Below are positions 52,908 to 54,064 of a DNA stretch of 64,000 bases, one piece after another. Source of the stretch: Thermodesulfobacteriota bacterium (lineage in GTDB: Bacteria > Desulfobacterota_D > UBA1144 > Nemesobacterales > Nemesobacteraceae). The position numbers were made by a program, and so were the translations under genes. The notes under the pieces are model-generated. The model was not told where the DNA came from and made no database searches. It worked only from the letters and a program-made list of their open reading frames with translations. The stretch spans positions 1,167,933-1,231,932 of the forward strand of contig OZ241964.1 of NCBI GenBank assembly GCA_965204035.1, in the 5' to 3' direction. How positions within the stretch are numbered: the stretch's first letter is position 1; each line of letters begins with the position of its first letter.

Positions 52908-53115
52908 AACAAGTACCTCCCGGTTAGAGATATTATGATTATTATAATACCCGGAAAAAAGAAAAAAGTCTGTAATATCCGGCAGTTTAAGTAAAAATCA
53001 GAATTTTCAAGGAGATGATCTTCTCTGGCGACCGTCCATCGGATAGTGTCGTCTCCCAGAATTCCATATTATCAGATAGCGAAAATTGCTGGAAATAGAT
53101 TATCTATAGTAAAAA

Positions 53116-53144
53116 TTTGATATTCTCAAATGTTCGCCATATAA
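53116..53144 (+). promoter_or_regulatory. Sigma70-like promoter TTGATA-N17-TATAAT upstream of the AbiEi-like gene, embedded in inverted/direct repeats
   Basis: Perfect -10 and near-consensus -35 with 17-nt spacing in a 30%-GC intergenic region. Inverted repeat ATTATCTAT (about 53100) / ATAGATAAT (about 53163). Confidence 0.4.
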
Positions 53145-53227
53145 TGATACACAAATATGATGATAGATAATATTAAGTAAAAATTGGAGAAAATCAAATT
53201 AAGACTGAAAAGAATCTAAAGAAATCC

Positions 53228-54034
53228 ATGGTCGGAGTTGAGCTGGTCAGACTTCTGGCTTCCCGGGGAGACAGGATATTCTCGACAGAACGGGCGCGGG
53301 AAATGGCGCCTCACGTTGGTCTCAAGGATTCGTATCTTTGCGAAGCTCTTTACCATCTCCGACGAAATGGCTGGATAGTCTCGATTCGCAGGGGGCTGTA
53401 CGCACTGTCCGTTCCCGGGACTTTTCCCGTGCACGAGTTTGAGATCGCGATGAATCTGGCAAGCCCTGCGGCGATTTCTCACTGGCTGGCCATGAATCAC
53501 CACGGCTTGACGGATCAGATACCTAGAACGATTTTCGTCCTGACAACCACGGGAAGTTCCTTCCCGCGTGTTCGAGGGATTAAAAGCAGAGGAATGTCCT
53601 ACAGAGGGTATAAGAGCGGGAATACTTTATACAGGTTTATTCAGGTGAAACCCGAGCATTTCTTCGGTACGGAAGAAATACTGATCGGAAACACTCTGGT
53701 ATTGATAACGGATCCCGAGCGTACGCTTCTGGACGGCCTTTGCCGTCCTCAGTACTGCGGCGGCTTCGCCGAAGCGCTCCACGCCTTTAATGTCATAGGA
53801 GATAACCTCAACATGAAGCGAATAGTAAAGTATGCTCTTCGGCTGAATGTCGCGGTGGCAAAGCGCTTGGGGTGGATTCTGGAATACTGGGGTTACGATT
53901 CTTCCGAATTCAGCGAACTCGCAGAACTGCCCGTCAAGGGCTACCGCAAGCTTGACCCCTTGGGGCCGAGAAAGGGACCGTGCAACAGTCGCTGGATGAT
54001 ACAGGAGAACCTTCCCGGGAACGTTGACTCATGA
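53228..54034 (+). CDS. AbiEi-like (COG5340) antitoxin/transcriptional regulator, orphan: no AbiEii/DUF1814 partner adjacent
   Basis: N-terminal wHTH of AbiEi type (ELVRLLASRGDRIFSTERAREMAPHVGLKDSYLCEALYHLRRNGWIVSIRRGLYAL) plus a C-terminal domain of about 170 aa. Sits in a low-GC cassette between gyrB and dcd. Confidence 0.5.
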   Translation: MVGVELVRLLASRGDRIFSTERAREMAPHVGLKDSYLCEALYHLRRNGWIVSIRRGLYALSVPGTFPVHEFEIAMNLASPAAISHWLAMNHHGLTDQIPRTIFVLTTTGSSFPRVRGIKSRGMSYRGYKSGNTLYRFIQVKPEHFFGTEEILIGNTLVLITDPERTLLDGLCRPQYCGGFAEALHAFNVIGDNLNMKRIVKYALRLNVAVAKRLGWILEYWGYDSSEFSELAELPVKGYRKLDPLGPRKGPCNSRWMIQENLPGNVDS

Positions 54035-54064
54035 TAAAATCAGCCGCAAAACACCGACCGCCAG

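Follow-up and report, generated by a model that had tools for sequence, protein, structure and literature searches.

An AbiEi antitoxin gene lacking its toxin partner between gyrB and dcd in a Thermodesulfobacteriota genome, with its promoter and predicted operators

The locus between gyrB and dcd

The window analysed in this work, a 64,000-nt stretch of contig OZ241964.1 from a Thermodesulfobacteriota bacterium, bears between gyrB and dcd a gene for a protein of the AbiEi antitoxin family that is not followed by a gene for an AbiEii toxin. Judging from the comparison with related genomes, the locus is the remnant of a chromosomal abiEi-abiEii (AbiE) toxin-antitoxin/abortive-infection operon located between those two genes. 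Its main features are the following:

50421-52907, minus strand: gyrB, the divergent upstream neighbour, an open reading frame (ORF) of 828 amino acids (aa)
52908-53227: gyrB-abiEi intergenic region, 31% GC
53228-54034, plus strand: abiEi ORF, 268 aa and a stop codon, between gyrB and dcd
53228-53413, plus strand: winged helix-turn-helix (wHTH) domain of abiEi, about residues 1-62
53414-54031, plus strand: C-terminal antitoxin domain of abiEi, residues 63-268
54041-54060, minus strand: hairpin resembling a terminator for dcd, with a minus-strand T-run after it
54065-54628, minus strand: dcd (dCTP deaminase), the convergent downstream neighbour

The position of the abiEi ORF and the convergent orientation of dcd are as described in an earlier reading of the letters alone (the sequence-only reading), and a spacer of 30 nt, filled by the dcd hairpin, separates the stop codons of the two genes. 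That reading had also noted a leader of about 30% GC, for which we measured 30.9% over 52995-53227 (233 nt), but its description of the whole element as a 30%-GC cassette is wrong: abiEi has 53.3% GC against 51.9% for the window, and gyrB has 52.4%. A low-GC, horizontally acquired cassette can be ruled out, the GC content of abiEi being that of the host and the AT-richness being confined to the intergenic leader.

The window falls in a clade of small-genome Thermodesulfobacteriota metagenome-assembled genomes. Its gyrB is 91-98% identical to that of the clade relatives (the Pfam GyrB domains were recorded on the orthologue from locus L001), and the dcd-pheS-secF-secD neighbourhood recurs in relatives of the window.

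Identity of the AbiEi protein

The product of 53228-54034 is a genuine member of the AbiEi antitoxin family, as indicated by profiles, fold and orthologues. The PADLOC AbiEi model PDLC02267 matches residues 5-262 of the 268 with E=5e-61, and the Pfam family AbiEi_1 (PF09407, the C-terminal antitoxin domain) matches residues 88-219 with 30.2 bits, above its cutoff of 22.2. The sequence-only reading, which had proposed an AbiEi/COG5340-type wHTH protein, had singled out AbiEi_4 (PF13338) as the profile with which to check it. AbiEi_4 itself fell just below its cutoff (24.7 bits versus 25, E=2.5e-5; matches to it were also recorded for close homologues), while AbiEi_1 and the PADLOC model do match and the two-domain AbiEi fold is found, so that the assignment stands. 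Searches of the PDB with the single sequence and with a shallow profile gave no match; a more diverse profile was needed, and that built from 86 homologues matched the Streptococcus agalactiae AbiEi structures 6Y8Q and 9HLO at E=3e-10.

An AlphaFold (AF2) model made from the alignment of 86 homologues has a mean predicted local distance difference test score (pLDDT) of 94.8 and a predicted template-modelling score of 0.90; an earlier model made from 24 close homologues (pLDDT 53.5) was not used. Residues 4-60 of the model follow the order H-E-H-H-E-E of helices and strands with pLDDT >92, and winged-helix domains are among the fold matches. In a Foldseek comparison against the PDB the only strong matches were 6Y8Q_A (E=8.4e-9) and 1ZEL (E=1.1e-8, template-modelling (TM) score 0.68), the next one being at E=0.035. 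The loop that contacts the toxin in S. agalactiae AbiEi, D85/E86/I87, is required for toxin binding and engages the toxin active site (bioRxiv 10.64898/2026.01.19.700257). Its counterpart here was located by profile alignment to 6Y8Q/9HLO:

53513-53521, plus strand: codons D96-Q97-I98 (in LTDQIPR), aligned to the toxin-engaging loop D85/E86/I87

This loop is conserved across the clade, and the family alignment shows no variation at Q97 and P99.

The missing toxin and the deletion junction

A tblastn search of the window with two cognate AbiEii proteins gave no hit at E<1e-3, and a Pfam scan of 20 other ORFs of the window found no PF08843, bearing out the absence of a DUF1814/AbiEii toxin that had been noted from the letters. 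A gene of family PF08843 adjacent to and downstream of abiEi, which marks a complete AbiE system, is found in the orthologous loci L006, L008 and L009 and is lacking in the window. The loci of the relatives, compared over the interval corresponding to gyrB-dcd as the sequence-only reading had proposed, are in the following states:

L006 and L008: abiEi-abiEii intact, directly before the orthologous dcd
L007: gyrB, abiEi, frameshifted abiEii, dcd
L078: abiEii truncated
L009 and L010: pair rearranged beside gyrB, with both genes frameshifted in L010
L005: orphan abiEi, then an inserted NsnABC defence system
L004, on OZ241855.1: gyrB, abiEi, dcd orphan, same as the window, including an identical junction

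In the window and in L004, L005 and L007, abiEi and gyrB point away from each other; L008 has no gyrB adjacency, and in L009 and L010 the pair sits at the gyrB 3' end.

Two short features 3' of the abiEi coding sequence record the loss of the toxin:

54031-54041, plus strand: relic of the abiEii start (ATGATAAAATC), 11 nt, whose ATG overlaps the abiEi stop codon TGA
54035-54041, plus strand: TAAAATC, microhomology at the deletion junction

In L006, TAAAATC occurs twice, at abiEii codons 2-4 (ATGGTAAAATCC) and just past the abiEii stop codon (GCGTTAAAATCAGCCGC), and the sequence of the dcd terminator hairpin also stands 3' of abiEii. The junction in the window and in L004 reads CATG(A/G)TAAAATCAGCCGC, that is, CATG(A/G)TAAAATCAGCCGCAAAACACC. 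Aligning this junction with the two copies in L006 thus shows abiEii to have been removed by a deletion between two 7-bp TAAAATC direct repeats, with the 11-nt start relic left behind and fused to the dcd terminator hairpin. The window abiEi has in addition a TGG>TGA change that removes its last residue. A likeness of 'VKPAKS' to the AbiEii N-terminus, 3' of the relic, was discarded, being no more than the dcd 3' end read on its reverse strand.

Three origins had been entertained for the gene: a solitary regulator, a remnant of a defence cassette, or one half of a pair with an unrecognised partner. The second is demonstrated directly by the sister genomes, in which abiEi-abiEii precedes the same dcd, and by the 11-nt abiEii relic. 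The first is compatible with the data, abiEi, promoter and operators being intact and abiEi being under purifying selection (see below). The third is excluded in cis, as the interval between the abiEi stop codon and dcd measures only 30 nt. More generally, AbiEi might pair with a toxin other than DUF1814, or with a gene at the locus that is small or antisense; some DUF1814 and COG5340 genes do have non-canonical partners (PMC3985639), and minus-strand ORFs of 95 and 51 aa overlap abiEi. These ORFs, however, are typical antisense shadows of a gene with 53% GC, the downstream spacer is occupied by the dcd terminator hairpin, the upstream gene is gyrB, an Rfam scan of the locus was empty, and the deletion of abiEii fully accounts for the junction sequence, so that a hidden partner is scarcely credible.

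The 2.6-kb contig carrying L006 (CAYSDX010000107.1), which comprises abiEi-abiEii-dcd, is labelled 'uncultured Spirochaetia'. It is probably mis-binned, because its dcd is 98% identical to that of the window, which is from Thermodesulfobacteriota.

Promoter and predicted operators

The leader of abiEi contains the following elements:

53117-53145, plus strand: sigma-70-type promoter, with -35 TTGATA at 53117-53122, a 17-nt spacer and -10 TATAAT at 53140-53145 (11/12 consensus matches)
53095-53131, plus strand: 37-nt direct-repeat unit, copy 1 (ATAGAT box ... GTAAAAATTTGA-N5-TCAAAT)
53163-53199, plus strand: 37-nt direct-repeat unit, copy 2, 68 bp downstream of copy 1
53105-53141, plus strand: predicted operator O1, imperfect 16-5-16 palindrome with its centre at 53123 and the core ATTTGA-tattc-TCAAAT (53115-53131)
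53173-53209, plus strand: predicted operator O2, imperfect 16-5-16 palindrome with its centre at 53191 and the core ATTGGA-gaaaa-TCAAAT (53183-53199)

The promoter, described earlier as perfect, is present and conserved, although it falls one consensus position short of perfect, matching 11 of 12. Both the nine clade members and the wider family keep TTGAC/TA and TAnnAT, which identifies this promoter, by conservation, as a real abiEi promoter shared across the family, and transcription would start near 53152. Conservation in all nine clade members, regardless of the upstream gene, extends over the abiEi-proximal ca. 135 nt, whereas the gyrB-proximal ca. 100 nt (about 52908-53006) are conserved solely in genomes with gyrB upstream.

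The pattern of the 37-nt unit occurs twice in the 64 kb, against 0 expected, and shift autocorrelation, with a family-wide peak at 67-68 bp, gives a best self-match at 66-69 bp in 40 of 79 family loci. A palindrome scan places the two best 13-5-13 palindromes at 53123 and 53191. O1 covers the -35 hexamer and extends to the -10, its arms being paired at 9/13 and 12/16 positions (background P(>=9/13)=0.002); O2, paired at 9/13 and 11/16, covers the Shine-Dalgarno sequence GGAG (53186-53189) and the ancestral start position, and in the wider family the equivalent site overlaps GGAG-N7-8-ATG. The core ATTKGA-N5-TCAAAT is found in the 64 kb only at O1 and O2 (0.7 expected), the promoter/operator columns are invariant across the nine relatives, and in other subfamilies both sites have another motif, TGTTCG..CGAACA. 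A statistic of 17-mer matching between O1 and O2 was weakly above controls (11.7 versus 10.4-10.8) and was replaced by the shift autocorrelation and the palindrome scan. These inverted repeats over the gene's own promoter are a trait of the AbiEi family, and O1 and O2, 68 bp apart, are likely operators to which AbiEi would bind.

The repeats to which the sequence-only reading had assigned a possible autoregulatory role are all present, but most of them are not the likely operators. The 9-nt inverted repeat ATTATCTAT (53099-53107) / ATAGATAAT (53163-53171) can be found, yet it is part of the conserved ATAGAT boxes. The CCATAT direct repeat CCATATTATCAGATAG (53064-53079) / CCATATAATGATACA (53137-53151) can also be found, yet it is not conserved, with its first copy in sequence unique to the window genome and its second copy simply being the -10 region; it is probably a product of chance.

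A regulator left without its toxin could have been recruited to control other genes as well, such as the divergent gyrB or neighbouring defence genes. Divergence from gyrB in four genomes, including the window, would fit such a role, as would the defence genes in the gyrB flanks (HNH and PDC-S01 in the window, NsnABC in L005, BREX in L008), and for the AbiEi-like protein Rv1044, which fails to bind its own promoter, a role in regulating other genes is possible (PMC7319586). On the other hand, within the 64 kb the operator core and the 37-nt unit are confined to the abiEi leader, the predicted operators are >185 nt away from the start of gyrB, conservation with abiEi does not extend to the gyrB-proximal part of the intergenic region, and the adjacency to gyrB is absent in L008 and altered in L009 and L010. 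We therefore regard a wider regulatory role as highly improbable.

Two other features that might lie in the intergenic region were discarded. A replication origin beside gyrB is ruled out, there being no DnaA boxes in the intergenic region, a window-wide count of such boxes equal to chance and no turn of the GC skew at that place. A structured RNA in the leader is ruled out as well, the only RNA gene that Rfam gives for the window being a tRNA located elsewhere.

Start codon

Relative to the ATG called in the window, 49 of 79 loci have an ATG, GTG or TTG, preceded by a Shine-Dalgarno sequence, that lies 8-13 codons (10-11 in most) further upstream. The clade differs at this canonical start position (53198-53200 in the window), which reads ATT in eight of the nine members and ATG in L078, and the ATG at the position of the window start (53228) is clade-specific, apart from L003. 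The intervening codons are:

53198-53227, plus strand: ten in-frame codons upstream of the called ATG, which may be translated (giving a 278-aa protein) or may now be 5' untranslated region

In the clade alignment, read by eye, the changes in these ten codons are mostly at third positions or are K/R exchanges. The ATT at the canonical position and the clade-specific ATG ten codons downstream suggest either a migration of the start codon or a rare AUU start embedded in O2. An 11-codon upstream ORF starting at TTG 53184 was ruled out, L004 having TTA there.

Recurrence of toxin loss in the AbiE subfamily

The 74 assessable loci of the subfamily fall into 50 with an intact pair, 16 whose toxin is degraded and 8 orphans. 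The search for loci was seeded with AbiEi, so that loci that lost the antitoxin are invisible in these counts, and some of the frameshifts are possibly assembly errors. AbiEi has no internal stop codon at any of 80 loci, whereas the toxin is broken at many of them. Of the orphans, six from outside the clade retain an abiEii stub of 10-18 codons, and therefore arose by independent deletions. The subfamily is 55-92% identical across >10 phyla. Complete related pairs were found on two IMG/VR viral contigs, homologues on sequenced plasmids were of 36% identity or less only, and no homologue was found in sequenced phages.

A second, partial AbiEi (aa 33-108, 68% identity) was observed in L025, another Thermodesulfobacteriota, at positions 6665-6898, 1.1 kb upstream of a complete abiEi-abiEii pair.

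Selection, recombination and the role of the orphan gene

The window and L004, which share the deletion, are collinear over 16 kb with 94.8% nucleotide identity. Between these two alleles the ratio of nonsynonymous to synonymous substitution rates (dN/dS) of the whole abiEi gene is 0.22 (Fisher p=2.6e-9), and for codons 63-268 the corresponding ratio of proportions (pN/pS) is 0.158 (p=6e-7); the dS of abiEi is about equal to that of gyrB, and pairs of toxin-bearing loci give a dN/dS of 0.13-0.18 for abiEi. These ratios show that the orphan abiEi has evolved under purifying selection since the window/L004 split.

Inside the block of ca. 95% identity, the identity between the window and L004 falls to 28-81% in 53000-53400, the region of operators, promoter and wHTH. 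In this 5' module the two orphan alleles share 78.6% identity, as compared with 95.5% in the 3' part, and the nearest relatives of the module are L006 and L008 for the window and L078 for L004, a phylogeny discordant with that of the 3' part. Both differences between the 5' module and the 3' part, in identity and in nearest relatives, indicate that the wHTH domain and the presumptive operators were exchanged as a unit by recombination.

We consider it likely that the locus is an AbiE remnant from which the toxin was deleted and in which the antitoxin/repressor survived with its own promoter, under selection, as a stand-alone and autoregulated protein. AbiEi would be made from the TTGATA-17-TATAAT promoter and would repress its own synthesis by binding to O1, over the -35 hexamer, and to O2, over the Shine-Dalgarno sequence and the ancestral start, so that the solo AbiEi is probably autoregulated. 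In the window the protein would have no toxin in cis to neutralise; retained in this form, it could neutralise a related AbiEii supplied in trans by incoming prophages or other mobile elements.

Several points weigh against this reading. No toxin that could act in trans was detected in the window by tblastn, and the genome contigs of the orphan-bearing relatives L005 and L004 contain none of the 120 closest AbiEii relatives, a search that distant DUF1814 paralogues could escape. Outside the 5' module the two orphan alleles have diverged by only ca. 4-5%, for which neutrality predicts about 1.1 stop codons, and the intact abiEi ORF is therefore weak evidence when taken alone. Constraint on the C-terminal domain does not prove an antitoxin function either, because in S. 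agalactiae AbiEi that domain is also needed for repression (PMC3985639). The deletion could be older than the window/L004 split, or the orphan allele could have spread by recombination. Finally, L004 has the Shine-Dalgarno sequence AGAG in place of GGAG, which together with the TGG>TGA trim of the window is possibly an early sign of decay.

These last traits, a weakened Shine-Dalgarno sequence in L004 and the loss of the last residue in the window, are also what would be expected of a neutral relic, an antitoxin functionless after the loss of its toxin and intact only for lack of time to decay. Such a history would be consistent with the small number of stop codons predicted, with the frameshifts in both genes of L010, and with the toxin-first decay that is the expected route for toxin-antitoxin systems, 24 of the 74 assessable loci lacking a functional toxin. 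The deletion-sharing alleles, however, have a dN/dS of 0.22 over the whole gene and of 0.16 over the C-terminal domain, near the values of toxin-bearing loci; the promoter/operator columns are invariant in the nine relatives; and AbiEi is free of internal stops in the 80 loci of a subfamily with many broken toxins. Mere persistence of a functionless gene thus appears distinctly unlikely.

A selected and autoregulated AbiEi might also be a more specialised device. It can be the case that the solo AbiEi is kept as a chromosomal immunity against the AbiEii of invaders, that the operator-wHTH module has been swapped in the course of that conflict, and that the ATT start of the clade, located within O2, may tune expression to a very low and tightly autoregulated level; we hold this to be doubtful.

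Comparison with known systems

Rv2827c of Mycobacterium tuberculosis (of the Rv2827c-Rv2826c pair; 1ZEL) is the best global structural match of the window protein (TM score 0.68-0.69 over ca. 280 columns, E=1e-8). The two are similar in size (295 aa versus 268-279 aa in the window) and share the layout in a wHTH and a C-terminal domain, and the Rv2827c promoter also has two sets of inverted repeats, within ca. 130 bp of the start codon (PMC7319586). They differ in that sequence identity is only 14-15%, the four repeats of Rv2827c are contiguous (13-bp and 4-bp gaps) while the palindromes of the window are 68 bp apart with one of them on the ribosome-binding site, and Rv2827c has the toxin Rv2826c while the window AbiEi has none.

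With S. agalactiae AbiEi (6Y8Q; complex 9HLO) the likeness extends to the profile match (E=3e-10), the top fold match (E=8e-9), the TD(E/Q)IP loop at the position of D85/E86/I87, the overlap of the abiEi stop with the abiEii start in toxin-bearing orthologues (4 nt in S. agalactiae; PMC3985639), and a palindromic operator, predicted in the window, that overlaps the promoter. The S. agalactiae protein is shorter (195 aa), its toxin is present, unlike in the window, and its operator is a single 23-3-23 inverted repeat (PMC7319586), whereas two imperfect 16-5-16 palindromes are predicted here. The layout of two operators predicted for the subfamily, on the -35 box and on the ribosome-binding site, would therefore be geometrically unlike those of the two AbiEi systems studied.

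As in orphan antitoxins in general, the antitoxin gene has been kept without a toxin. It has been proposed that such antitoxins inhibit toxin-antitoxin systems, either the host's or those of competing mobile elements (PMC11541004). The window gene differs from them in its location, on the chromosome and flanked by housekeeping genes instead of in a plasmid leading region, and in its origin by deletion in situ, documented by the junction relic, rather than as an independently acquired gene.

The locus thus provides a base-pair-resolved case of the decay of a toxin-antitoxin module, in which the toxin was excised through microhomology and the antitoxin/repressor kept under purifying selection. 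Moreover, within one highly conserved AbiE subfamily, the loss of the toxin with retention of the antitoxin recurs independently in many phyla. The locus also calls for caution in annotation, as 'AbiEi' calls in scans for defence systems do not imply an active AbiE system. Current understanding is not overturned by what is an ordinary, although well-documented, case of decay.

Other features of the window and of the gyrB-dcd interval

The only RNA gene given by Rfam and ARAGORN in the 64-kb window is a tRNA-Arg(CCT) at 18920-18994. Two ORFs of the window, at 12418-13221 (plus strand, 267 aa) and 63077-63853 (minus strand, 258 aa), match no Pfam family at E<=0.001.

In L005, complete NsnA, NsnB and NsnC genes (PADLOC, 1e-105 to 1e-116) are inserted at 8914-12149 between the orphan abiEi and dcd, and a duplicated fragment of the abiEi 3' end (aa 244-262) is found at 12266-12322, just before dcd. 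L008 has BREX genes and an HNH gene upstream, in place of gyrB. The gyrB-dcd interval acts like a hotspot of defence islands.

Between nuoH and gyrB, at 48078-50353, the window carries two accessory genes of the defence type. The first encodes an HNH_2 endonuclease (PADLOC HNH, 2.5e-27), and the second an AAA_14/DUF4143 ATPase (PADLOC candidate PDC-S01, 4e-89) with a GC content of 59.5%. The segment of the ATPase (about 49054-50420) is missing from the relative L007 and resembles an insertion.

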